Shown here in pieces: positions 9,439-35,420 of a stretch of DNA of 64,000 bases. This DNA comes from Escherichia phage nepoznato. Within the stretch, counting starts at the first letter, position 1; each line of letters begins with the position of its first letter. A model generated the notes under the pieces. The model ran no database searches. It saw only the letters and a list, made by a program, of their open reading frames with translations, and had not been told where the DNA came from. The position numbers and the translations under genes are program-made. Location: sequence record NC_052658.1. One strand, 5' to 3'.

Positions 9439-9442
9439 TCTT

Positions 9443-9471
9443 GACAAGCCCAGGGATCGGGCTTATACTGT
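9443..9471 (+). promoter_or_regulatory. TTGACA-N17-TATACT promoter whose spacer contains hairpin AAGCCC/GGGCTT; promoter versus weak terminator is ambiguous
   Basis: Direct reading. Confidence 0.4.
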
Positions 9472-9690
9472 TTTACATACAGAAGAGGAAGCGCCACCCC
9501 CACGGCGTAAAGGCGGGGCTAACATACCAGGGGCACTGGTTGGAAGGTTGATCGCCGGTAGGCTGGGCGCTATATATTTGTAAAGAAATGTAAAGATAAA
9601 ATAATCGCTTGCTTTCCTGGCTGGATCTGTTATTCTTATTACATGGCGAGGGGACACGGGAGCGCGAGACAAACACCGCCCCTGCGCGTC
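9472..9690 (+). ncRNA. Candidate structured non-coding RNA: GC-rich island with nested complementary segments and no plausible ORF
   Basis: Compositional outlier downstream of the promoter-like element. Confidence 0.25.
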
Positions 9691-9694
9691 ATTC

Positions 9695-9800
9695 TCTAAA
9701 TGAGAATGATTATCATTTACTTTATTAAATAAGAATCAATCTCATTTATAAACCTAAATGCGAATCATTATCATTTGCATTTCCACATGAGAACTCTTCT
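9695..9800. repeat. Four iterated palindromic sites of about 19 bp (AATGATTATCATT; ATGAGAA-CTC-TTCTCAT), Fur-box-like
   Basis: Direct reading; related motifs at 141-160, 455-475, 1014-1045. Confidence 0.5.
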
Positions 9801-9825
9801 CATTCCCATCTGCATAAATTTTTGT

Positions 9826-10030
9826 AAACTTTAAATTTTGCTTTTGTACTTTCATTTTTGTAAAAGCAAAAAAACTTTAAATACTGTGGGCGCGCAAAAT
9901 TTTTAAAATTTTCCTTGACTTTTGAGTTTTGTTTTGTATCTGACATTTTAAGATAATTTTCCTAAACTTTAAATTTTGGTTTTCAACTTTCACTTTTGTA
10001 AATTCTTAAAAAGTTTAAATAATTTGAGGG
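9826..10030. repeat. Two copies of a direct repeat of about 56 bp (AAACTTTAAATTTTG...TTTTGTAAA...TTTAAATA)
   Basis: Copies at about 9826-9885 and 9961-10018. Confidence 0.6.
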
Positions 10031-10162
10031 ATTTTTGAGATAATGGATAGTGGGAATTTGATATAACCTTTAATCTTATTAGTAGACCTTCAGGAACCCA
10101 CCTAGATCGAATCCTGGTGATGCAAACTGAAAAAGACAAGGGTTTGTATAGGACAAAATAAT

Positions 10163-10198
10163 AGGCTCTCTACGGTGCTGTAGGAGCCTTATTTCTGT
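10163..10198. terminator. Bidirectional hairpin terminator (AGGCTC...GAGCCT) with T-rich flanks on both strands
   Basis: Direct reading. Confidence 0.5.
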
Positions 10199-10244
10199 GC
10201 TACAAAGTGACACCTTTGTTCTAAAAATGAAAAAAGTTAAAATA

Positions 10245-10787
10245 TCACAAATATCGTCTTTGCGGTATTTTGTCTGGGAAAAGTATTTCGATCAGTTTGT
10301 TATGATATTTACCTAAAAGATTTTGCCCTTTCCAGTTGACCGGATTTAGCACCCCTGGTTCATACATCCCCATTCCAATTCCGTAAACCTTATCGTAGGG
10401 GCTTGCTTCAACAAACGTTTTGTATTGGTAAAGGTGTAAGTCTGCATACAAATCTGGATTCTGTACATATTTCAAGCATAAACCTCGCATAACAATACGC
10501 TCACGGTTCTCTTCCCATACGTTGTTATCAAAATCCGACACTGCCCTACCCATACGTTTGTAATAAGCTTGGATCTTCTCATCTTTCCGTATCAAACTAT
10601 GAGTCAGAATAGCCTGTGCAGTGTTGTGGTCATTAAAAAGCAAAGCTTTACGCCACATCATATATTGTTCGACACAATTAAATGTTTGATTGTAACCTGG
10701 TTCGGTTTCTGTAAAGGGTGCAATATACCAATTACTAAACACATCTTTATGTGAAAAGAAGAATACATAATCATCAGTTATTCGCAT
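10245..10787 (-). CDS. NADAR (YbiA-like, DUF1768) family protein
   Basis: Recalled YbiA blocks FSNF/FSNW, EHYFQAQKF-like, MGR, and LVEASP-D-WG-G-like C-terminal half. Confidence 0.8.
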   Translation of the reverse strand: MRITDDYVFFFSHKDVFSNWYIAPFTETEPGYNQTFNCVEQYMMWRKALLFNDHNTAQAILTHSLIRKDEKIQAYYKRMGRAVSDFDNNVWEENRERIVMRGLCLKYVQNPDLYADLHLYQYKTFVEASPYDKVYGIGMGMYEPGVLNPVNWKGQNLLGKYHNKLIEILFPDKIPQRRYL

Positions 10788-10998
10788 TTTTCATACTCTC
10801 CAAAATTTCACGTTGCCCTTTCTGATAGGCTTTCATCAGGACCACTTTAAGGTTTGTCTCCAAAAGATCTTCATTGTAGTTATACCGCTCCACAACATAT
10901 GTCAATTCATCATAAAGATCAAGAACGGGGTAGAATACAGGGTTATCTGCTAAACGTGCCATAGTTTCTCCTTTGTTAGTCCATCCACCAGTAGCCAT
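10774..10998 (-). CDS. Hypothetical protein (74 aa)
   Basis: ORF in overlapping operon. Confidence 0.5.
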   Translation of the reverse strand: MATGGWTNKGETMARLADNPVFYPVLDLYDELTYVVERYNYNEDLLETNLKVVLMKAYQKGQREILESMKNANN

Positions 10999-11341
10999 AA
11001 ACTGCGTCTGCGTCGATGAGTTTGTGTTTGTTGTTCCGCATGTAGTCTAAGATAAGTAGACGTTTATTGTATCTGGAGAGATTATGACCCTCTTTTCCGC
11101 CATAGTCAAAATATTTTGCAAGATCTTTACACTCAAACAAAATCAGTTCGGGAGTTTCTTCACACTGGTCTGTCTGGTACACTTGACGAATGATCATGTA
11201 TACATCATCGTCTTCCGCTAAATGCTCTACTGGTCCACATCCAGCAGGAACAAATTCATAGTCCCATCGGATCAGATGTTTCTCTACTGCTTCAAAGAAA
11301 TCCATCCTTTCGTTGCGCATAATTTGAACGTCAACTAACAT
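10976..11341 (-). CDS. Hypothetical protein (121 aa)
   Basis: ORF. Confidence 0.5.
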   Translation of the reverse strand: MLVDVQIMRNERMDFFEAVEKHLIRWDYEFVPAGCGPVEHLAEDDDVYMIIRQVYQTDQCEETPELILFECKDLAKYFDYGGKEGHNLSRYNKRLLILDYMRNNKHKLIDADAVYGYWWMD

Positions 11342-12519
11342 GTTTCCTCCTGTAATGTTCCACCATAAAGTTTATAAATGTTTTGTATTGATGCCATGCA
11401 AGATAACTCCGCTGTCTCTGTGTAGCCATCTGGCATAGCATATTTGCTCACTGCTTCCGTGTGAAGGACACGCTTACAACGCTTTTCTGCATCTTTGCAT
11501 TGCTTCACAGTAGGGAAGTGCCACACTTGGCCCTGTTTCATAGTAAACACATTACGACTATTTTGTTCTTTGATACGGCGATTACTATTATTAGCAATAC
11601 CAAACTTCAGTGCACAGATAATATCTTGCTCATCGTAAATATAATTAATGTAGGCTTGTTGTTGATTTTTGTTAGCACACTGCGGACAACCTTGTCCTAT
11701 GTTTAAAAGGTTGTTTGCAGTTCCTTTTTGTTCCCCATGACTCTTACATACATATTTAAACTTACCTATAGAAGATGGTTTGGTAATCCATCCTATCCAA
11801 ACATACCCTTTCTTTTCTATTTTCTTTCTTACTTTATACGTAATCTGTTCCGCTGTATACCTATAAGATGCAGAGCAACGGCAGGGTAAGTGTCCATATT
11901 TAAGATTGCTACGCGTCATATAAAACTTACCATCACATAGTCCAGCTTTAACATATTCATCATGAGAACAAACAGGACACTGAACCATCCATACCGGATC
12001 ACACCCTTTACGTTCCCCCGTGTTGGTGAAAATAGTGCCTTCCTTAAACTTCCCTGTAGAAAAGAAATCTGCAATATGTTGATCGTCGGGTATTGTTTGT
12101 GACCTCCTTGTGTTCTCATACCTACATATAAGACAACCACTGCCATGTTTAAAACTATCAAAACTACATGTATTCCATTCATGACCATACCTACAACGTA
12201 GCATCATTTTCGTACGCGCACCTTTAAACGGTTCTACGATACCTATGATGGTAATCCCCTTAGCTTCCGCTATTGGTTTACATTCAGTAAGGTATGTTTT
12301 TAAATCTTTAATTTGACCTGCACACATAGGACAACCACTACCACGTTTAAAACTGTTAATACTTGTAGTATCCCATTTATAACCACAATGACACAACAAA
12401 TCAAGTTTTGTATTAACCCCTTTCCATTCTCCCGTCCATCCTAAGATTTGGATTTGCTTACTCTCTGCTATGGGTTGACACTCTTCTTTATATTGTTCCC
12501 ATGATTTTGGTGCTGCCAT
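11335..12519 (-). CDS. Multi-zinc-ribbon protein with C-terminal T5orf172/GIY-YIG-like domain (putative DNA-binding/nuclease)
   Basis: At least four repeats of a Cys-containing module ending GSGCPxC; C-terminal YIYDEQ...KFGIANN. Confidence 0.5.
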   Translation of the reverse strand: MAAPKSWEQYKEECQPIAESKQIQILGWTGEWKGVNTKLDLLCHCGYKWDTTSINSFKRGSGCPMCAGQIKDLKTYLTECKPIAEAKGITIIGIVEPFKGARTKMMLRCRYGHEWNTCSFDSFKHGSGCLICRYENTRRSQTIPDDQHIADFFSTGKFKEGTIFTNTGERKGCDPVWMVQCPVCSHDEYVKAGLCDGKFYMTRSNLKYGHLPCRCSASYRYTAEQITYKVRKKIEKKGYVWIGWITKPSSIGKFKYVCKSHGEQKGTANNLLNIGQGCPQCANKNQQQAYINYIYDEQDIICALKFGIANNSNRRIKEQNSRNVFTMKQGQVWHFPTVKQCKDAEKRCKRVLHTEAVSKYAMPDGYTETAELSCMASIQNIYKLYGGTLQEETC

Positions 12520-28840: not shown

Positions 28841-29497
28841 ATGACTATTAAACATATCTCTTTTGATGTATGGAACACACTGATCACAGCAAACTCCAAT
28901 TACGCAGACATGCGAGCCTGGACTATCGCAAAATATGGAGATATTACGGAAGTGGAAGCAAGAGCAGCTTATAAGAAGATCAAAAAGGAACTGGATAATG
29001 CAGCACTTCAAGGCAAAGCCGAGTGTGCAGCATACGCCTGGGAAAGACTTGGTTCTGAACTTGGGATAACACCTTGGAAGTCTGCAAAGCTTCGTTTCGA
29101 GTGTGAACAGTGGTTCCTTAAGTTTCCACCACACGTAGCCGTGGATCTGCCGATGTACTTGCTGTATCTTTCGGGACGTTATGATTTGAGTATTAAGAGC
29201 AATACCAACTTTATATCAGGGGATATCCTGCGTCGTGCTTGTAAGTTTGATAGTTGGAATTGTTTTGAGTTCACCCATTTCTCGGATGAAGCTTTACTTT
29301 GTAAACCAGATCCGCGATTCTTTGCTCGCACGCTCACATATTCTCCGATCCCTCTGTTAGGGCACGAAGTATTGCACGTAGGCGATAGTGAAGAATATGA
29401 TGGAAAATGTGTTGACTTAGGATTTAACTTCTGTCATATTAAGAACCCTAACGACTTACTAGAGAAACTTAAAAGAGGAGAAATTGTAAATGCGTAA
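28841..29497 (+). CDS. HAD-superfamily hydrolase-like protein
   Basis: N-terminal FDVWNTL resembles HAD motif I variant. Confidence 0.4.
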   Translation: MTIKHISFDVWNTLITANSNYADMRAWTIAKYGDITEVEARAAYKKIKKELDNAALQGKAECAAYAWERLGSELGITPWKSAKLRFECEQWFLKFPPHVAVDLPMYLLYLSGRYDLSIKSNTNFISGDILRRACKFDSWNCFEFTHFSDEALLCKPDPRFFARTLTYSPIPLLGHEVLHVGDSEEYDGKCVDLGFNFCHIKNPNDLLEKLKRGEIVNA

Positions 29498-30317
29498 TCA
29501 AACTCAAATTTTTGCAAATAAATTTGATGACCTGGAAACTGCTACTTTTGATATCCAAGATTATTCAAAATTGAAATTTGGTAGTAACCAAGCCGCGCGT
29601 CGTATGGGTAAAGAATTGGCACTTCAGTTTTTTGCTCAAGTGGCAATGAAACATATTGGGGAACAATTTGTTATCATTCCTTCTCCTTACAACCATGTGC
29701 ATAATGCTGCAACAATGATGACAGATCATTTTATTAATTACTTTAACATGTTGCAATCACAATATAATCAAGGTCGTTCAGCAGAACTGGACATTATTCA
29801 TCGTAAAGTTAGCTATATCAACGATTATGGTTTCTTGGATAAAGCTAGTCGTAAGAAACTTATTGATGGGGATACATTCTACTGCAACAAAGAATTCTGG
29901 GGTGATAAGAAGCTTGTATTCATTGATGATGTAAATATCACTGGAACGCATGAAGACAAACTGATTGAGATTCTTGATGAAAATCAAGTTAAAAATGATG
30001 TTTACTTCCTGTATTTTGCAAAATATGAAGGTAATCAAGCAGATACCGAAGCTAAACTGAATTTTAACTACATTAATACACCAGAAGCGTTTGTTAAAAT
30101 GATTAATGAAGAACGTGATGCACAGTGTCTTGTTCGTCCTATTAAATATCTTATGGGCCAAAATCATGAAGACTTCAAAATCATTCTTAGCCAATTGCCA
30201 CACTACTATGTAGAGCAACTTTTCTTCGGCTGTTTAGCTGAAGGCTACAATCGAATTGCAAAGTATACTGAAAACTTTGAATTCTTGGATCGTTACACAA
30301 AACAACACATTCTGTAA
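29490..30317 (+). CDS. Type I phosphoribosyltransferase (PRTase) fold protein
   Basis: PRPP-binding motif LVFIDDVNITGT. Confidence 0.6.
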   Translation: MRNQTQIFANKFDDLETATFDIQDYSKLKFGSNQAARRMGKELALQFFAQVAMKHIGEQFVIIPSPYNHVHNAATMMTDHFINYFNMLQSQYNQGRSAELDIIHRKVSYINDYGFLDKASRKKLIDGDTFYCNKEFWGDKKLVFIDDVNITGTHEDKLIEILDENQVKNDVYFLYFAKYEGNQADTEAKLNFNYINTPEAFVKMINEERDAQCLVRPIKYLMGQNHEDFKIILSQLPHYYVEQLFFGCLAEGYNRIAKYTENFEFLDRYTKQHIL

Positions 30318-30331
30318 TAAGGAGCTAAAAA

Positions 30332-30805
30332 ATGCTTAAAATGAAAACAGGTAATCTTATTGATGCCGCTAAAGCAGGTGAAGTAACTGTTATTGCTCAT
30401 TGTTGCAATTGTATGTGTAATATGGGGGCAGGAATTGCTCCGCAAATTAAACGAGCATTCCCTTATGCATATGCGGCGGATTTAGACACAATGGCTGGTG
30501 ATCAGAGTAAGTTAGGTTCTTTTAGTTTAGGGGTGCCAGACGAACAATCAGACCCTTTGGTATATAATCTATACGGGCAATACCGTTACGGATATAATGC
30601 TAAAGGTCGTCAGTTGGACTATGATGCCCTATACGATGCACTAATAGCTATGGCTAATGATTTGCTTCTCCGTGACCAAAAATGTAAGATCGGTTTACCT
30701 ATGATTGGAGCGGGACATGCCGGAGGTAATTGGGCTATCATCCAAGTGATGATTGAAGAAACTTTAGTAAAAACAGGTCACGATGTGACTATTTATAAAC
30801 TTTAA
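30332..30805 (+). CDS. Macro domain protein (ADP-ribose binding/hydrolase family)
   Basis: Gly-rich blocks IAHCCNCMCNMGAGIA and LPMIGAGHAGG. Confidence 0.55.
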   Translation: MLKMKTGNLIDAAKAGEVTVIAHCCNCMCNMGAGIAPQIKRAFPYAYAADLDTMAGDQSKLGSFSLGVPDEQSDPLVYNLYGQYRYGYNAKGRQLDYDALYDALIAMANDLLLRDQKCKIGLPMIGAGHAGGNWAIIQVMIEETLVKTGHDVTIYKL

Positions 30806-30817
30806 GAGGAGATTAGT

Positions 30818-31039
30818 ATGGGTGTTTTTGCAGGTATTGTTGCAGTGGTAAGCTTTTTTGTTATTGCTTTTATGCTTAGTTTGATTCCAGCTTGGTTACT
30901 GTTGCTGGCTTACAACTATGTTGCTGAAGTTATGGGTCATGCAGATATCACTGTCCCAGTAACCTTCTGGACCGTGGTTTGTGTTTCGTTTATTCTGGCT
31001 GTATTACGAGGAATCTTTTCCTCTCATTCAACAAAATAA
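30818..31039 (+). CDS. Small membrane protein (73 aa)
   Basis: Two hydrophobic helices. Confidence 0.55.
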   Translation: MGVFAGIVAVVSFFVIAFMLSLIPAWLLLLAYNYVAEVMGHADITVPVTFWTVVCVSFILAVLRGIFSSHSTK

Positions 31040-31100
31040 GTGTTGACATAGTTCTTAAAAAGAGTAAGATATATCACATGAAGCGGGGAATAGTTCCCCG
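31038..31100 (+). promoter_or_regulatory. Early-type promoter (TTGACA) plus conserved leader TATCACATGAAG and hairpin CGGGGAA-TAG-TTCCCCG, plus-strand copy
   Basis: Same architecture as the leftward early promoters. Confidence 0.55.
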
Positions 31101-31118
31101 CAAAGAGAGGAGAAAAGA

Positions 31119-32093
31119 ATGCAACTCGGTTTCCCAATTATTGATGTAGTTGTTTTAGTTGGTATTTTGGCATTGTCTATTGGTATCGATTTCTTTGGTC
31201 ATAAAGAGAATAAAGAAATTGGAATTAAATCTGCTTTGCTTTGGTCTATTTTTTGGATTGCTTTAGCTTTAGGATATTACGCATTCATTTGGGTAGAACA
31301 TGGTAAAGAGTTTGCCGCGCTTTTCCTAAGTGGCTATGTGTTGGAAAAGAGTCTTTCTGTAGATAACCTGATGGTGTTCATGGCAATTTTTGCAAGCTTT
31401 GGAATTAAGAGCACACATCTCCAACATAAGATTTTACTTTGGGGGATTGCAGGAGCCATTGTCTTCCGAGGTATTTTTGTTGCAGCAGGCACCGCTTTGT
31501 TTAACCTTCATTGGTCGGTACAAGTGTTGTTCGGTTTGATTGTAGCTTGGTCTGCCGTAGCTATCATCAAAGGTGGTGACGAAGAAGAGGATATTGATTA
31601 CTCTAAGCATTGGGCTGTTCGTTTAGTAGGTAAAGTTCTGCCTGTGCACAATGCACTGGATGGTGAAAAGTTCATTACCATTAAGAATGGTATTAAATAT
31701 GCAACTCCTGCTCTTCTTTGTGTGTTTGTTATTGAGCTTACAGATATTGTCTTCTCTTTTGATTCAGTTCCGGCTGTGATCGGTGTGACACAAGAACCTC
31801 TGCTGGTTTATTCTGCAATGCTGATGGCTGTTCTTGGTTTACGTGCGCTTTTCTTTGTGTTAAGTGTAGCTGTGAAATATCTGGTTCACTTAGAGAAAGC
31901 TGTTGCTGTGGTTCTGGTGTTTGTTGGTGTTAAACTTATGTATCACCCGTTCGGTGAAACACTTCATGCCAAGTGGTCATTCCTCCCGCATGATATTTCC
32001 CCTAACGTAAGTCTGATGATTGTTCTAGGCACATTAGCTCTTGGTGTTATTGCAAGCTTTATCTTCCCTGAAAAAGAAGAAGCTGCTGTTTAA
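31119..32093 (+). CDS. terC: TerC-family integral membrane protein
   Basis: EKSLSVDNLMVF and ELTDIVFSFDSVPA; multiple TM helices. Confidence 0.75.
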   Translation: MQLGFPIIDVVVLVGILALSIGIDFFGHKENKEIGIKSALLWSIFWIALALGYYAFIWVEHGKEFAALFLSGYVLEKSLSVDNLMVFMAIFASFGIKSTHLQHKILLWGIAGAIVFRGIFVAAGTALFNLHWSVQVLFGLIVAWSAVAIIKGGDEEEDIDYSKHWAVRLVGKVLPVHNALDGEKFITIKNGIKYATPALLCVFVIELTDIVFSFDSVPAVIGVTQEPLLVYSAMLMAVLGLRALFFVLSVAVKYLVHLEKAVAVVLVFVGVKLMYHPFGETLHAKWSFLPHDISPNVSLMIVLGTLALGVIASFIFPEKEEAAV

Positions 32094-32100
32094 TAGATGA

Positions 32101-32125
32101 GCCTCCTTCGGGAGGCTATTTTATA
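32101..32125 (+). terminator. Rho-independent terminator AGCCTCC-TTCG-GGAGGCT + T-run
   Basis: Direct reading. Confidence 0.7.
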
Positions 32126-32135
32126 GGAGAGACTT

Positions 32136-32486
32136 ATGAATAATTTTGATGAAATTCAAGAACTTGTTTGGGATTTATCTGGTGATGTGGATTACATTTC
32201 AGATTATCTTTCAAAAGTTTACCCTGGGGTAAGCGTTATGATTGTGACCAAAGATCCGATTAATTTGCCTCCTAATGTGGTAGCTTGTTGTGGAAGTGGT
32301 TCAGGAGAAGTAGAGCCTGTATCTCGTTGGGAATTAACTAAAGCTGTTTCAAAACGAAACGGTGAAGTTTTGAATATTGATATTGAACAAATATGGACTT
32401 CTCCAGCAGCCAAATGGAATGATCCGAATGGTTGGGATTTGTTCTTCTGGGATAATGAAACTGATGATGAGGTATTTTTAAAATGA
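32136..32486 (+). CDS. Hypothetical protein (116 aa)
   Basis: ORF. Confidence 0.55.
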   Translation: MNNFDEIQELVWDLSGDVDYISDYLSKVYPGVSVMIVTKDPINLPPNVVACCGSGSGEVEPVSRWELTKAVSKRNGEVLNIDIEQIWTSPAAKWNDPNGWDLFFWDNETDDEVFLK

Positions 32487-32728
32487 AATACTTGTTGGTT
32501 GTGTTTGAAAATATCTGTTTTGCAATAGGGTTGTTTGTTGTAATTTTTGTATTGACAAGCGTAATCAACGGCAGTAAAGTGAGTTTATACCGAGATGGAG
32601 AGCAAATTTATTGCTTCTCTGGAGATTTCAAACACAGATGTATTAATAGTCAAAATGAGGAAAGCAAATATGAAAAAACTAGCCCTGATTTTAATTGGTT
32701 GTATCTTTTTAACAGCTTGCGAGGATGA
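32483..32728 (+). CDS. Small membrane protein (81 aa); overlaps next gene by about 58 nt
   Basis: Hydrophobic N-terminus. Confidence 0.4.
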   Translation: MKYLLVVFENICFAIGLFVVIFVLTSVINGSKVSLYRDGEQIYCFSGDFKHRCINSQNEESKYEKTSPDFNWLYLFNSLRG

Positions 32729-33107
32729 AACAAATCCTGCACAATACCAACAACCTCCTCAACAATACGCCCAACAAGGATCTGATGGAGATACAACTAT
32801 TATCAACAATGGTGGCGGTTCTAGTAGTAGCGGTGTTGGTGAGTTTGCTACAGGTATGTTGTTAGGGCATATGATGAGCGGTGGTAGTAATCGTAGTGGC
32901 GGGGATTATAACGATAACAGAACAATTATTAATAAACATTATAACACACCTAAACCGAAGACTAATTTTTATGGTAAGCCTAAACAAGAGACAAAAACTT
33001 ATGAAAAGCCGAGACAAACTTTTAAAACAAATAGTAGCTATACAACTCGTAAATCTTACAATAGCCCTTTAAGTAAAAAGAGTTCATCTCGTAGCAAGCG
33101 ACGTTAA
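32670..33107 (+). CDS. Lipoprotein with Gly/Ser-rich and Lys-rich tracts (about 145 aa)
   Basis: Signal peptide plus lipobox LTAC. Confidence 0.6.
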   Translation: MKKLALILIGCIFLTACEDETNPAQYQQPPQQYAQQGSDGDTTIINNGGGSSSSGVGEFATGMLLGHMMSGGSNRSGGDYNDNRTIINKHYNTPKPKTNFYGKPKQETKTYEKPRQTFKTNSSYTTRKSYNSPLSKKSSSRSKRR

Positions 33108-33122
33108 TAAGGAGAAAAAACA

Positions 33123-33566
33123 ATGACAATTTCTATCCGTACTTCCATTACAGGTGTTAAAAGTTTGCCTAATGCTTTGCAAATTACACGCGCTTTGAGG
33201 GATACGTTCTCCGCTGTGGATGAGCATAAGATGCTTGATAATCTCTCAAATTGGCCTTATTTTCATTATTTTAAAAATGAAGACGACGAGTTTATAGATG
33301 CTGTTTCTTATGGTTATGATTTCGGTAAGGAGGTTTCTCCTGAAGAATTTGTAGCTATGGTGTTCCCAAACGGTTTGCCTACTCGCAGTAAACGTAAAAA
33401 AGGACCAAAAAACAAGAAACGTGCTACTAACAAAGCTACCATTTTCTTTACTGATGGCACACAATATACGATTAAAGATTTTGAAGAGGTATCTTATACA
33501 GCAGGTGGGAATCTTTCTTTCTACACCATCAAAAAAACAAAACCCTACGTTCAGCCATGTTTCTAA
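33123..33566 (+). CDS. Hypothetical protein (147 aa)
   Basis: RBS AAGGAGAAAA. Confidence 0.55.
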   Translation: MTISIRTSITGVKSLPNALQITRALRDTFSAVDEHKMLDNLSNWPYFHYFKNEDDEFIDAVSYGYDFGKEVSPEEFVAMVFPNGLPTRSKRKKGPKNKKRATNKATIFFTDGTQYTIKDFEEVSYTAGGNLSFYTIKKTKPYVQPCF

Positions 33567-33720
33567 CATGATTGAAATGTTAGTAGAAGATATTGAAAGC
33601 GTGGCTGTGTTAGGTATGCATAAAAGCTTTTTAATTACAAATATTTCAGATTTCAGTGCACGTTTATCTGGCCCTGATTTTGAAGCCACGACCACGCATT
33701 TCACTTTTAAGGTGTAAGTT

Positions 33721-34311
33721 ATGCATACCGAGAGAGACTTGCAACTCTTGTGGTGGGAAGTGATGCAGGAAATAAAAGAAGATTTTCCTGTTTACTACAA
33801 CATGTTACGTGAAGCAGGATATAAAGCTTGCGTTAGAAACAAAGTGAATAACTCTTTTGGTTGGTGCAATTACCGAGATAAGATTGTTGTTGTAAATTGG
33901 CACTTGCATAAGAACTCCACAAGAGATATGATCGTGGATACAATGAAGCACGAAATTGCTCACGCTATTGATGGTTGTATGGGTAAGTTTAGTAGGCATG
34001 GTGCTCATTGGCAAAAACTGGCAGCAGAATTAGGGGCTAATCCTAAAGCCACTTCCAAAGAGCCGTTGAACCACGAATATAAATATGTTCTTGTTCTGGT
34101 AGATAGGTTTGCGACAAGATGTGTTAGAGGTTATAATCGTAAACCTAATCGCATGTACCCAGGTAAGCAACCTAACATGTGGTTGAAATCAGATAAAGAA
34201 GGAACTGAAGGAAAATTATGGTTGTATAAATGGGATGATTGGGTTAAAGTAGCTAAAGAGTACGGTGTTTCACCATATATAAGAGATGCAGAAGAGGAGA
34301 ATGAAGAATGA
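33721..34311 (+). CDS. SprT-like zinc metallopeptidase domain protein
   Basis: HEIAH (HExxH) in SprT-like context. Confidence 0.55.
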   Translation: MHTERDLQLLWWEVMQEIKEDFPVYYNMLREAGYKACVRNKVNNSFGWCNYRDKIVVVNWHLHKNSTRDMIVDTMKHEIAHAIDGCMGKFSRHGAHWQKLAAELGANPKATSKEPLNHEYKYVLVLVDRFATRCVRGYNRKPNRMYPGKQPNMWLKSDKEGTEGKLWLYKWDDWVKVAKEYGVSPYIRDAEEENEE

Positions 34312-35420
34312 CAAGTCCATTTTTAAAAGCAGCTACTGGTGGTCAGAAGAAGTCTGAAATGAGTGTATTCGCTGCAACAACAGATGCAAGTAAATCTGTA
34401 TTCGCTCCAAGTGTGTTAGATGCCAGTCCTGTTTATGCACCAGCAGCACCGCAAGAAGTTCCAGTTTTGCCTGCTATGACCCGACAAGAGATCGAAGAGA
34501 TTGGGGCAGAGGCAGGAACAACCTTGCGTTCCTTGAATGCCGAGGTATTAAAACATCAACGTAGTAATCAAGGCGATCAGATGAGTGAACGACTCACAGC
34601 TTTGATTAAACAGGCAAAACAACTTGATCCAAATTCTATTAAACAAAGCAAGGGTATTACTAAACTCATTAAAAAAGTTATGGGTATGAAAGAAGACCTG
34701 TTCGGGGAGTTTGATAATGTTAATAACCGTATTGAAGAGTTGGTAAAGAACCTTCAAATGGATATTCGCAAAGAAGAAGATTCCTTGGTATATCTTGAAA
34801 AGCTACATCAAGCTATTGGACAATATGCTGCAAGTTTGAACCGAGATATGCAGCTTCTAACAGCAACCTATGAAAAAGAAGAACAAGCTTTGGCTGCTCT
34901 TCCAGAAGATGCAGTAGAACAGCGACAAGTGATCCGAGATACTTTGGATCTTCTGGAGATTCGTATTGCAGATTTAAAAGCATTGCGCCTACTGTGTGTC
35001 CAAATGGGACCGCGTGTACAAGGTATGCAAAAAGTTTCTGCAAGCTTAATGCGATCTGCGCGTAACATAGTAAATAATGTTATTCCTGCTTACTCTGCTA
35101 ACTTCTCAATGTATATCGAGAGTTTACGTCAAATGAAAGCAGCAGAGACGCAGAATAACGTTCTTGATGAATTTAACCTGGCAATTAAACTGGGTAGCGA
35201 TCTTGCCACACAGAATCAGATCGAAGCAGCAGCACTGGCTAACCGTCAAGTGTTGGATATTGAAACTCTGCGTCACGATCAGGAAAACTTGGTTAAGATG
35301 TTGGAAGAAACTAACCGCATCAATACGGAAGCCCGTGCTGCTCGTGTTGATTATATTAATGAAGTTCAATCTCTGGAAGACGGGATGGTAGCTGCTGTGA
35401 AACGAGGGCTTGGTAAATGA
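34308..35420 (+). CDS. telA: TelA-like (toxic anion resistance family) protein
   Basis: N-terminal GDQMSERLTALIKQAKQLDPN resembles the TelA/YaaN region; coiled-coil rich; Ter context. Confidence 0.55.
   Translation: MTSPFLKAATGGQKKSEMSVFAATTDASKSVFAPSVLDASPVYAPAAPQEVPVLPAMTRQEIEEIGAEAGTTLRSLNAEVLKHQRSNQGDQMSERLTALIKQAKQLDPNSIKQSKGITKLIKKVMGMKEDLFGEFDNVNNRIEELVKNLQMDIRKEEDSLVYLEKLHQAIGQYAASLNRDMQLLTATYEKEEQALAALPEDAVEQRQVIRDTLDLLEIRIADLKALRLLCVQMGPRVQGMQKVSASLMRSARNIVNNVIPAYSANFSMYIESLRQMKAAETQNNVLDEFNLAIKLGSDLATQNQIEAAALANRQVLDIETLRHDQENLVKMLEETNRINTEARAARVDYINEVQSLEDGMVAAVKRGLGK

Follow-up and report, generated by a model that had tools for sequence, protein, structure and literature searches.

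We found that Escherichia phage nepoznato encodes a NADAR-domain protein that is probably an active, stand-alone ADP-ribosylglycohydrolase of the AdfN kind, which would reverse the guanine modification introduced by DarT1 and thereby permit escape from DarTG1. The gene lies in a 64,000-nucleotide stretch of sequence record NC_052658.1 (hereafter the window), which belongs to a Phapecoctavirus (phAPEC8-like) E. coli phage. The protein has a NADAR domain with the corresponding fold, retains conserved ligand-binding and catalytic residues, evolves under purifying selection, and is orthologous to, and syntenic with, an experimentally tested protein, AdfN-Bas60. This reading is a well supported annotation, not a discovery: the idea is not new, because phage NADARs that counter DarTG1 (2025), macrodomains that counter DarTG2 (2025/2026) and the presence of both erasers in T4 have already been published.

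The original prediction placed a gene for a 180-amino-acid YbiA/NADAR protein at 10245-10787. An open reading frame with exactly these limits exists, but it is carried by the minus strand; the plus-strand translation of the same interval is full of stops. The Shine-Dalgarno sequence of the gene is located within the 3' end of the preceding open reading frame, whose stop overlaps the NADAR start (Table 1). A likeness to YbiA/NADAR proteins across the entire length had also been claimed, and profile searches bore this out: the protein matches the Pfam NADAR family (PF08719, DUF1768) with an E-value of 1.8e-35 and a score of 123 bits (cutoff 35.1), its residues 11-161 aligning with positions 3-154 of the 163 in the profile, and the domain as a whole occupies residues ~4-165. 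Further matches were to PHROG 1017 (7e-52), to the profile of PDB entry 8bau, a NADAR (4e-15), and to PADLOC PDC-M42C, for which both the window protein and the AdfN-Bas60 lineage protein score ~120 bits. Pfam finds a single domain in the protein, with neither a GTP cyclohydrolase II nor a RibD domain. Most database records nonetheless name this gene "hypothetical" or, wrongly, "GTP cyclohydrolase II", and COG3236 is also used. As Pfam gives the NADAR domain only, the cyclohydrolase label is ruled out and represents a carry-over of COG3236 fusion annotations.

Table 1. Features of the window discussed in the text.
Feature	Position	Strand	Remarks
Intrinsic-terminator-like hairpin and U-run	10154..10189	minus	~55 nt past the NADAR stop
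NADAR gene (predicted AdfN-type)	10245..10787	minus	180 aa; ATG-started ORF, exact coordinates
74-aa ORF	10774-10998	minus	upstream of NADAR
Shine-Dalgarno GGAGAG	10796..10801	minus	~10 nt upstream of the NADAR ATG; read from the sequence
121-aa ORF	10976-11341	minus	upstream of NADAR
394-aa CapR-domain/treble-clef Zn-finger 'endonuclease'	11335-12519	minus	Pfam CapR x4 and DUF4379; PHROG 681 endonuclease
Macro-domain protein, 157 aa	30332..30805	plus	TARG1/SCO6735/DarG clade; homolog of T4 Tk.4 (AdfM)

The AlphaFold (AF2) model of the protein (pLDDT 95.7, pTM 0.89) has the alpha-helical core fold of NADAR and YbiA proteins. When this model was compared with the PDB using Foldseek, the only significant matches were 8bau, the ADP-ribose complex of the Phytophthora nicotianae NADAR, a member of the 'general NADAR' family (TM 0.78), and E. 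coli YbiA, 2b3w (TM 0.69). The former is the best match overall; it is a eukaryotic protein with 35% identity to the window NADAR, and both carry the Glu-type catalytic motif. In P. nicotianae NADAR, ten residues contact ADP-ribose: E43, K50, K75, R79, Y84, W89, R93, E125, D130 and W133 (Schuller et al. 2023, PMC11543638). Their equivalents in the window protein are E40, K47, K77, R81, F86, W91, R95, E127, D132 and Y135; eight are thus identical to those in the crystal structure, and the other two are aromatic-for-aromatic swaps. In a 58-sequence alignment of the NADAR family, six of these residues (E40, K47, K77, W91, E127, D132) never vary, while R81 is conserved in at least 90%. E127 is the catalytic glutamate, within the motif VEASPYD, while E40 and K47 align with E36 and K43 of T4 AdfN, mutation of which impairs counter-defence (Johannesman et al. 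2025, PMC11825919).

None of the ten contact positions varies among six orthologs from Phapecoctavirus, and dN/dS values of 0.02-0.15 across NADAR orthologs indicate strong purifying selection. These observations bear on the idea that the protein is a non-enzymatic inhibitor that binds ADP-ribose to block some other defence system. One sentence of Johannesman et al. (PMC11825919), which contrasts the enzymatic AdfN with the phage NADAR of a 2024 Retron-Eco1 study, speaks for this idea. However, intact and conserved catalytic residues would not be needed for binding alone, and we therefore judge a pure binder to be extremely unlikely.

The activity, substrate and in vivo role that we propose for the window NADAR derive from its residues and from its ortholog AdfN-Bas60. 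The name AdfN (anti-DarT factor NADAR) was given to phage NADARs by Johannesman et al. 2025 (PMC11825919), and AdfN-Bas60 comes from the BASEL phages Bas60-62, which are phi92-like Justusliebigvirus (PMC11825919). In E. coli cells without phage infection, AdfN-Bas60 neutralises DarT1; it also restored phages RB69, T5 and Bas25 on DarTG1 while having no effect against DarTG2 (PMC11825919). We identified AdfN-Bas60 via the BASEL phage records, and used as comparator the protein of Justusliebigvirus JLBYU50. BASEL phage EmilieFrey (Bas61) encodes exactly the same protein, and those of the other two phi92-like BASEL phages, PaulScherrer and JohannJBalmer, share 98.9-99.5% identity with it. The window NADAR shares 59% identity with the JLBYU50 protein over 172 amino acids (E 2e-69), and the order of the surrounding genes is conserved; sequence and gene order thus mark it as the ortholog of AdfN-Bas60 in Phapecoctavirus. 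The phAPEC8 counterpart, gp010, is 99.4% identical to the window protein, and phage EP57 appears to carry a truncated copy, provided that its assembly is correct. Both are stand-alone, Glu-type proteins of ~180 amino acids from lytic Stephanstirmvirinae myoviruses, and both have a lineage-specific insertion of ~7 residues (residues ~64-72 of the window protein). They differ in that the window protein comes from another genus, with ~41% of the aligned residues changed, and 59% identity to the AdfN-Bas60 lineage does not guarantee equal efficacy in vivo. The gene is widespread: at 80% identity or more it occurs in at least 68 Phapecoctavirus-like records, it is found in ~56 Justusliebigvirus records, and homologs are present in 717 phage records overall. 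A search of the literature on Phapecoctavirus and DarTG returned no paper on the subject, only one anti-defence survey, and nothing in the window indicates that such phages encounter DarTG1 in nature.

The genomic setting of the gene is likewise shared with the tested lineage. On the minus strand, three co-oriented open reading frames at 10774..12519, with overlapping stops and starts, form one unit with NADAR, to which their functional link is only putative; the two small ones match PHROG 24465 and 22330. Gene order around NADAR is the same in phAPEC8, and in Justusliebigvirus JLBYU50 it differs only by the lack of the two small open reading frames, which in the window separate the endonuclease gene from NADAR. 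The arrangement ATPase-endonuclease-NADAR-terminator is common to the window and JLBYU50; in both, the NADAR gene follows those for the ATPase and the endonuclease and closes the transcription unit. That end is marked in the window by a hairpin and U-run with a folding energy of -16.2 kcal/mol (z -4.2), a value that was equalled in none of 200 shuffled sequences. Five phages share an unchanged hairpin stem, a single difference occurring where the U-run begins, and the phAPEC8 record carries an ARNold terminator annotation in the matching stretch, ~55 nt after the stop. Rfam and tRNA searches of the conserved non-coding stretch downstream of NADAR found nothing. Beside the NADAR gene there is neither an ART domain nor a DarT gene, its neighbours being an AAA ATPase, the CapR/Zn-finger endonuclease and the small open reading frames; the phage NADAR is therefore an orphan without an adjacent cognate DarT.

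Together, the residues, fold, selection, orthology and synteny support the suggestion, made in the original prediction, that this NADAR is a candidate factor for removing DarT-type ADP-ribosylation from guanine. In our proposed model, DarT1 of an infected, DarTG1-carrying host uses NAD+ to attach ADP-ribose to guanine N2 in single-stranded phage DNA, and this modification blocks phage replication. The phage NADAR would then bind the ADP-ribose: K47, K77 and R81 are predicted to engage the phosphates, F86 and W91 to contact the ribose and adenine, and three acidic residues (E40, E127, D132) to surround the distal ribose. Hydrolysis of the N-glycosidic bond would regenerate unmodified guanine and allow replication to proceed. 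As an orphan enzyme, the protein would behave like a type IV antitoxin, with no need for contact with the toxin.

The window protein belongs to none of three other described NADAR groups. DarG1, the DarT1-linked NADAR antitoxin (BC4488 family), removes ADP-ribose from guanine N2 in DNA, as is predicted for the window protein; however, DarG1 proteins are defined by an Asp in place of the conserved Glu and by an N-terminal extension of the core (PMC11543638; PMC11825919). Membership was rejected, as the window protein has E127, its domain begins at about residue 4, leaving no such extension, and no DarT or ART gene adjoins it; among the PDB matches of its profile at E <= 0.01, there was no DarG1-type structure. 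AdfN-T4 (gp30.3) is of the same superfamily and has the same proposed anti-DarTG1 job, but it lacks detectable pairwise similarity to the window protein (BLASTP E 4.3) and has His where the window protein has E127, and membership in the T4 type was therefore also rejected. AdfN-T4 needs the context of a T-even infection, whereas AdfN-Bas60 works alone (PMC11825919). The T4-type and window-type NADARs were acquired independently. Finally, the equivalog model of the DS-32 NADAR anti-phage protein (NCBIfam NF053876) requires 240 bits; the window protein scores 16.5, and membership was rejected.

Likeness to YbiA suggests a metabolic role, and the original prediction had named a riboflavin-pathway N-glycosidase as the competing match. 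In such a role, the protein would be a YbiA-like N-glycosidase that destroys reactive intermediates of the riboflavin pathway, or comparable small molecules bearing ribose, with no part in defence evasion. The protein does formally pass TIGR02464, 'riboflavin biosynthesis intermediates N-glycosidase', an equivalog-domain model (112.3 bits, cutoff 73.7); it shares the fold and the catalytic Glu of YbiA, and the 'GTP cyclohydrolase II' and COG3236 names in many GenBank records point the same way. TIGR02464, however, is evidently not discriminating within the NADAR superfamily and accepts non-YbiA NADARs, and the cyclohydrolase and RibD domains that those names imply are absent. In direct comparisons, the general NADAR family is closer to the window protein than YbiA is: its profile scores 122 bits with P. 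nicotianae NADAR and 65 with YbiA, the respective identities are 35% and 30%, the TM scores given above rank the two in the same order, and a BLASTP alignment with YbiA covers just 96 amino acids at 29%. YbiA is thus not its closest characterised relative, and no linkage to RibA/RibD or other riboflavin genes was detected near NADAR in the phage. On the E. coli chromosome, ybiA adjoins rhlE, dinG and ybiB, a neighbourhood described by Cihlova et al. (PMC11125620) as a LexA-controlled operon. Johannesman et al. (PMC11825919) place the window-type lineage outside the YbiA-like housekeeping group, and the tested ortholog AdfN-Bas60 has anti-DarT1 activity (PMC11825919). A riboflavin-related function is, on this evidence, very improbable.

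The neighbours of bacterial relatives raised a second metabolic alternative, in which the protein would act in NAD+ or ADP-ribose small-molecule metabolism, for example by clearing or recycling free ADP-ribose derivatives produced by NADase-type defences, rather than on DNA. We scanned the neighbours of 67 bacterial relatives and considered the 25 most frequent of the 102 matched families. Among these, ADP-ribose and NAD functions were enriched around the closest relatives, with a microbial PARG next to 9 of them and NUDIX and NrtR next to 6 and 5, respectively; an association with Hen1 was also seen. The enrichment for ADP-ribose and NAD functions speaks for the anti-DarT1 reading as well. 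Neither a riboflavin family, which again argues against the riboflavin alternative, nor a toxin partner emerged among those 25. Of three 'bacterial' homologs whose contexts were inspected, two proved to lie on jumbo-phage-like contigs and one in a prophage-like context; none adjoined an ART toxin, and those on the jumbo-phage-like contigs had NAMPT/NAPRTase and PRTase genes within 2-5 kb. Yet no NAD-salvage genes lie near NADAR in the window, where the AAA ATPase, the endonuclease and the small open reading frames are found instead, and the ortholog AdfN-Bas60 acts on DarT1-modified DNA (PMC11825919). We thus give the NAD-metabolism alternative very little weight. The NARP3 paper contains no link between NADAR or macro domains and NAD reconstitution.

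A further alternative is that the protein erases ADP-ribose from nucleic acids more broadly, with DarT1 lesions forming only a part, or no part, of its physiological targets. Hydrolysis of G-ADPr is common to every NADAR subfamily tested, whereas T-ADPr is hydrolysed by none (PMC11125620). NADARs of the Glu type are reported to act on C-ADPr as well as G-ADPr, in DNA and RNA; DarG1 (Asp-type) and the T4 enzymes (His-type) act on G-ADPr only (PMC12945103). The window protein keeps the catalytic Glu, E127, as do the general NADAR and YbiA families, and its profile is nearest to a general NADAR member (8bau); it may therefore remove guanine- and cytidine-linked ADP-ribose alike and counter pierisin/ScARP-like or as yet undescribed ART-based defences. 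Against this, no known defence system ADP-ribosylates cytidine. Moreover, a W53S mutant showed that base choice does not hinge on the aromatic residue (PMC12945103), so that base specificity is not readable from sequence. We consider this alternative unlikely; it would in any case overlap with the anti-DarT1 role rather than exclude it. Fold is no better a guide to specificity in vivo, which tells against the anti-DarT1 reading: YbiA, and T4 gp30.3 outside T-even infection, have G-ADPr activity in vitro yet give no cellular rescue from DarT1 (PMC11125620).

The original prediction also proposed a macro-domain protein as a possible second eraser in the same phage, and this protein was found where expected (Table 1). 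Its Pfam Macro match is marginal (23 bits, cutoff 22), but structure prediction assigns it firmly to the macro fold, and its match, like that of the NADAR protein, far exceeds what chance would give. Its AF2 model (pLDDT 93.8) gave Foldseek TM scores (query/target) of 0.78/0.87 with TARG1 and 0.79/0.81 with the Taq DarG-ADPr complex, as well as 0.82 with BT1257 and 0.76 with Mtb DarG, which, with profile matches, assigns it to the TARG1/DarG clade. It also matches NCBIfam DarG (36 bits), PADLOC DarG (39 bits) and PHROG 335 (1e-55). It is homologous to T4 Tk.4 (37% identity over 124 amino acids, E 2e-21), which has been named AdfM and genetically validated as an anti-DarTG2 factor (HIDEN-SEQ preprint, 10.1101/2025.11.20.689424); PhiKZ gp104 is also an AdfM (PMC13309987). 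Where DarG and TARG1 carry their catalytic Lys (Taq K80 and K84, respectively), the window protein has Q83, which is invariant in a 54-sequence macro alignment. Gln occupies the same position in SCO6735, BT1257 and T4 Tk.4, and SCO6735 is listed as a T-ADPr hydrolase although it is Gln-type (PMC12945103). The window protein resembles T4 Tk.4 in being a single macro domain of ~155 amino acids from a lytic phage and in its PADLOC DarG score, which is equal; in contrast, the macro gene of the window and of Justusliebigvirus lies inside a HAD-PRTase_3-macro-TerC-TelA cluster. From its homology, we regard the macro protein as a candidate second eraser, acting on thymidine-linked ADP-ribose.

The main value of these results is in annotation. 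The NADAR gene should be relabelled as an AdfN-type anti-DarTG1 NADAR, and phrog_335, currently "phosphatase", as an AdfM-like macrodomain; relabelling both would improve the prediction of therapeutic or model phages able to overcome DarTG systems. The finding opens no new question, but it shows the NADAR-plus-macrodomain pairing reported for T4 in an unrelated subfamily of myoviruses as well, in keeping with the view that E. coli phages are under widespread selection by DNA ADP-ribosylation. A further possibility, which we regard as doubtful, is that the Glu-type Stephanstirmvirinae NADAR (G and C, DNA and RNA) and the Gln-type macrodomain (thymine-ADPr) together provide near-complete cover against base ADP-ribosylation; if so, that cover would include undescribed ART-based defences, for example pierisin/ScARP-like ones. 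Residues ~29-78 of the NADAR are mosaic and form a divergence hot-spot between Phapecoctavirus genomes. This pattern weighs against the anti-DarT1 reading, but it would, if such cover exists, record how the protein has adapted to modifying enzymes or substrates that differ.

The 4 kb around the NADAR gene share 95-97% identity with Escherichia phages ECML-183-2, TSP7_1 and phAPEC8, which places the window in Phapecoctavirus (Stephanstirmvirinae), myoviruses of ~150 kb. The original prediction had correctly located an open reading frame encoding a NADAR protein, but its strand had to be corrected to minus, as the plus-strand frame contains many stops. The profile search that it proposed as a check confirmed the family: Pfam recognizes NADAR as the single domain of the 180-aa protein, matching across its length (residues 11-161, E 1.8e-35, 123 bits; cutoff 35.1 bits). 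PHROG 1017, of unknown function, also matches (7e-52), and the only solved structure found by sequence is 8bau, the Phytophthora nicotianae NADAR with ADP-ribose. The start of the gene overlaps the stop of the ORF before it. The stem of the hairpin 3' of the gene does not differ among five related phages, and in phAPEC8 a terminator is annotated at the equivalent place. Phages SF1-1 and SKA64 encode exactly the same protein (100% identity), phAPEC8 gp010 is close behind at 99.4%, and 717 phage records contain homologs, among them phages of Staphylococcus, Listeria, Bacillus and Klebsiella. Records label the gene 'hypothetical protein', 'GTP cyclohydrolase II' or 'NADAR family protein', so the practical value of the assignment lies in fixing a widespread mis-annotation.

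Features of the NADAR and macro protein loci (window positions)
Feature	Position	Strand	Description
ORF-poor stretch	9440-10245		~800 bp, downstream of NADAR; 95-99% identity across six Phapecoctavirus genomes
Palindromic box	9696-9804		TAAATGAGAATnATTnTCATTTA, three copies, 29-nt spacing
Direct repeats	9817-9888 and 9955-10026		two, 72 nt
Terminator-like hairpin and U-run	~55 nt past NADAR stop	-	dG -16.2 kcal/mol, z -4.2
NADAR ORF	10245-10787	-	ATG start, 180 codons
Shine-Dalgarno	~10 nt upstream of NADAR ATG	-	GGAG (sequence)
'Endonuclease' (as annotated)	11335-12519	-	four CapR homology domains (PF21817, 121 bits), treble-clef zinc finger (DUF4379); PHROG 681
HAD-like hydrolase (weak)	28841-29497	+	macro cluster member
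ComF-like PRTase_3	29490-30317	+	142 bits
Macro ORF	30332-30805	+	157 aa; barely passes Pfam Macro (23 bits, cutoff 22)
TerC	31119-32093	+	139 bits
TelA-like protein	~4 kb beyond TerC (cluster span 28841-35420)	+	ESCO25 annotation

Orphan phage NADARs, termed AdfN, clear phage DNA of the ADP-ribose that DarT1 attaches to it (Johannesman et al. 2025, PMC11825919). In addition to T4 gp30.3, that study examined two further, unrelated NADARs of phages, of which AdfN-Bas60, from BASEL phages Bas60-62, neutralised DarT1 in uninfected E. coli and restored RB69, T5 and Bas25 on DarTG1, while DarTG2 was unaffected. Bas60-62 belong to the phi92-like phages, which are sister to the phAPEC8-like group. 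The NADAR of phi92-like JLBYU50 matches its EmilieFrey (Bas61) counterpart at 100% identity and its PaulScherrer and JohannJBalmer counterparts at 98.9-99.5%. It shares 59% identity with the window protein over 172 aa (E 2e-69), and the two have a lineage-specific insertion in common. The AdfN-Bas60 phages (Justusliebigvirus) and Phapecoctavirus also share a gene order of AAA ATPase, CapR/Zn-finger 'endonuclease', NADAR and terminator. NADAR is last in its unit in both genera, and in Phapecoctavirus two additional small ORFs precede it. From this identity, insertion and gene order, we infer that the window gene is the Phapecoctavirus ortholog of AdfN-Bas60; by sequence, it would be a new AdfN-family member in a phage that also encodes an AdfM-like macrodomain. 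Orthology to a validated anti-DarTG1 factor supports the original reading, reversal of DarT-type ADP-ribosylation, and an anti-DarT1 glycohydrolase mechanism is likely; the biology behind this reading is already published. Activity on ADP-ribosylated guanine (G-ADPr) in vitro is no guarantee of protection in cells: neither YbiA, the E. coli riboflavin-intermediate N-glycosidase, nor T4 gp30.3 outside T-even infection rescues from DarT1 (PMC11125620). AdfN-T4 has no detectable similarity to the window protein (E 4.3), which fits the conclusion of Johannesman et al. (PMC11825919) that phages acquired NADARs several times. The PADLOC model PDC-M42C, which represents part of a candidate but uncharacterised defence system of bacteria, matches both the window NADAR and AdfN-Bas60 (locus L001, 4001-4552) at ~120 bits, so NADARs of this lineage may have a role in bacterial defence or immunity modules as well.

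The active site is well preserved. In the P. nicotianae NADAR, ADP-ribose is contacted by E43, K50, K75, R79, Y84, W89, R93, E125, D130 and W133 (Schuller et al. 2023, PMC11543638); after allowing for an offset of +2 in the deposited 8bau chain, each of the ten matches its expected letter. Their aligned counterparts are, in order, E40, K47, K77, R81, F86, W91, R95, E127, D132 and Y135: eight identical residues and two aromatic-for-aromatic swaps. Across the 58-sequence family alignment, E40, K47, K77, W91, E127 and D132 are invariant and R81 nearly so; E40 and K47 align with T4 AdfN E36 and K43, both of which were targets of mutagenesis in Johannesman et al. 2025 (PMC11825919). Because the catalytic residues are intact and conserved, a non-enzymatic binding role, such as has been mentioned for a phage NADAR from Retron-Eco1 work, is unlikely. 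Pairwise dN/dS among six Phapecoctavirus orthologs is 0.02-0.15 (dS up to 0.68), with no change at any of the ten ligand positions; selection clearly maintains the gene. The motif VE(127)ASPYD keeps a glutamate where, according to published comparisons, DarT1-linked NADARs have Asp and T4-type phage NADARs His. Glu-type NADARs of the general and YbiA families cleave ADP-ribose from cytidine and guanine alike, in DNA and in RNA; DarG1 and the T4 NADAR do not remove the cytidine-linked form (PMC12945103, 2026). Since the window NADAR is Glu-type, such a broader substrate range is plausible and would extend the anti-DarT1 explanation.

Could the protein instead be a riboflavin-pathway N-glycosidase? 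NCBIfam TIGR02464, named for that enzyme, is passed at 112 bits (cutoff 73.7), but this model extends over that same domain and, evidently, also admits NADARs other than YbiA. Our AlphaFold2 model, based on the 58-sequence alignment (pLDDT 95.7, pTM 0.89), had only two significant Foldseek matches in the PDB, both NADARs: 8bau (TM 0.78, 35% identity) and YbiA (TM 0.69, 30%). The family profile matches 8bau with 122 bits and YbiA with 65, BLASTP to YbiA covers only 96 residues at 29% identity, and Pfam detects neither a GTP cyclohydrolase II nor a RibD domain in the protein. Thus, of the better riboflavin match that the original prediction had set against itself, the TIGR02464 hit stands, yet by direct comparison the protein is closer to general NADARs than to YbiA. 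Even YbiA hydrolyses G-ADPr in vitro (PMC11125620). We regard a riboflavin role as very improbable. A genome scan found 590 bacterial relatives, the best at 33-44% identity. When the immediate neighbours of 67 bacterial loci (134 genes) were compared with Pfam, the 25 most frequent of 102 matched families contained no riboflavin enzymes; recurrent were microbial-type PARG (9), itself another ADP-ribose eraser, prophage Gp3-like (9), NUDIX (6), NrtR (5) and Hen1 RNA repair (5).

The NADAR family is named for its NAD-linked context, and on two jumbo-phage-like metagenomic and MAG contigs (327-355 kb), homologs of ~43-45% identity lie 2-5 kb from NAMPT/NAPRTase, PRTase, Thg1-like and adenylosuccinate synthetase genes. 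These neighbours would suit a role in small-molecule NAD/ADPr metabolism, but the window gene context offers nothing in support, and we give this role hardly any credence.

The macro domain protein named in the original prediction was also recovered, with a marginal Pfam match and a TARG1/DarG-like fold: its model (pLDDT 93.8) superposes on TARG1 (TM 0.78/0.87), BT1257 (0.82), Taq DarG with ADP-ribose (0.79) and M. tuberculosis DarG (0.76). Its family profile matches BT1257, SCO6735, TARG1 and both DarG macrodomains, and the NCBIfam and PADLOC DarG models also match its macro portion. It shares 37% identity (E 2e-21) with T4 Tk.4, the anti-DarTG2 factor AdfM (2025 preprint, 10.1101/2025.11.20.689424), a name also given to PhiKZ gp104 (2026, PMC13309987). 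In place of the catalytic lysine (DarG K80, TARG1 K84), the protein has Q83; this glutamine is invariant in the family alignment and shared by Tk.4, BT1257 and SCO6735, the last listed among thymidine-ADPr-reversing enzymes (PMC12945103). Given the TARG1/DarG and Tk.4/AdfM matches and the glutamine of SCO6735, the proposal of two independent erasers is reasonable; T4 is already reported with the same pair.

The macro cluster also occurs in Justusliebigvirus (Antha), and resembles the Ter-cluster 'nucleoside-like metabolite' module of Anantharaman, Iyer and Aravind. In Pakpunavirus (Pseudomonas phage Zigelbrucke, locus L100, 1-3480), a macro homolog of 40% identity directly follows ribose-phosphate pyrophosphokinase and nicotinamide phosphoribosyltransferase genes, which in some lineages connects the family with modules for phage NAD+ salvage. 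Because of these two contexts, the macro protein may act on a small ribose-phosphate molecule instead of, or in addition to, DNA lesions.

Compared with other Phapecoctavirus genomes, the NADAR operon (10554-12519, minus strand) is a recombination mosaic, with variable parts between nearly identical flanks. Nucleotide identity is 38-85% in the CapR/Zn-finger endonuclease gene, which adjoins NADAR in both Stephanstirmvirinae genera, 74% in a 74-aa ORF, and 72% over NADAR residues ~29-78 (versus Schickermooser and ukendt); variable NADAR residues concentrate at 31-72 and 84-90. The endonuclease gene may be functionally linked to NADAR, or it may be a mobile endonuclease. In Escherichia phage vB_EcoM_EP57 (OR544956.1; Phapecoctavirus, ~131 kb), NADAR is reduced to its C-terminal 77 residues (locus L018, 2501-2731), and the record lacks the endonuclease region and is split into many tiny CDSs. 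This truncation reflects either a natural deletion, comparable to the shortened AdfN in RB69, or an error of assembly or annotation.

The ORF-poor stretch is far more conserved than the synonymous sites of the adjacent NADAR (dS 0.3-0.68), and has no Rfam or tRNA matches. Homopolymer lengths in its GC-rich part differ between genomes, making the phAPEC8 CDS gp009, annotated in the corresponding stretch, doubtful. The stretch may be an origin or regulatory region.
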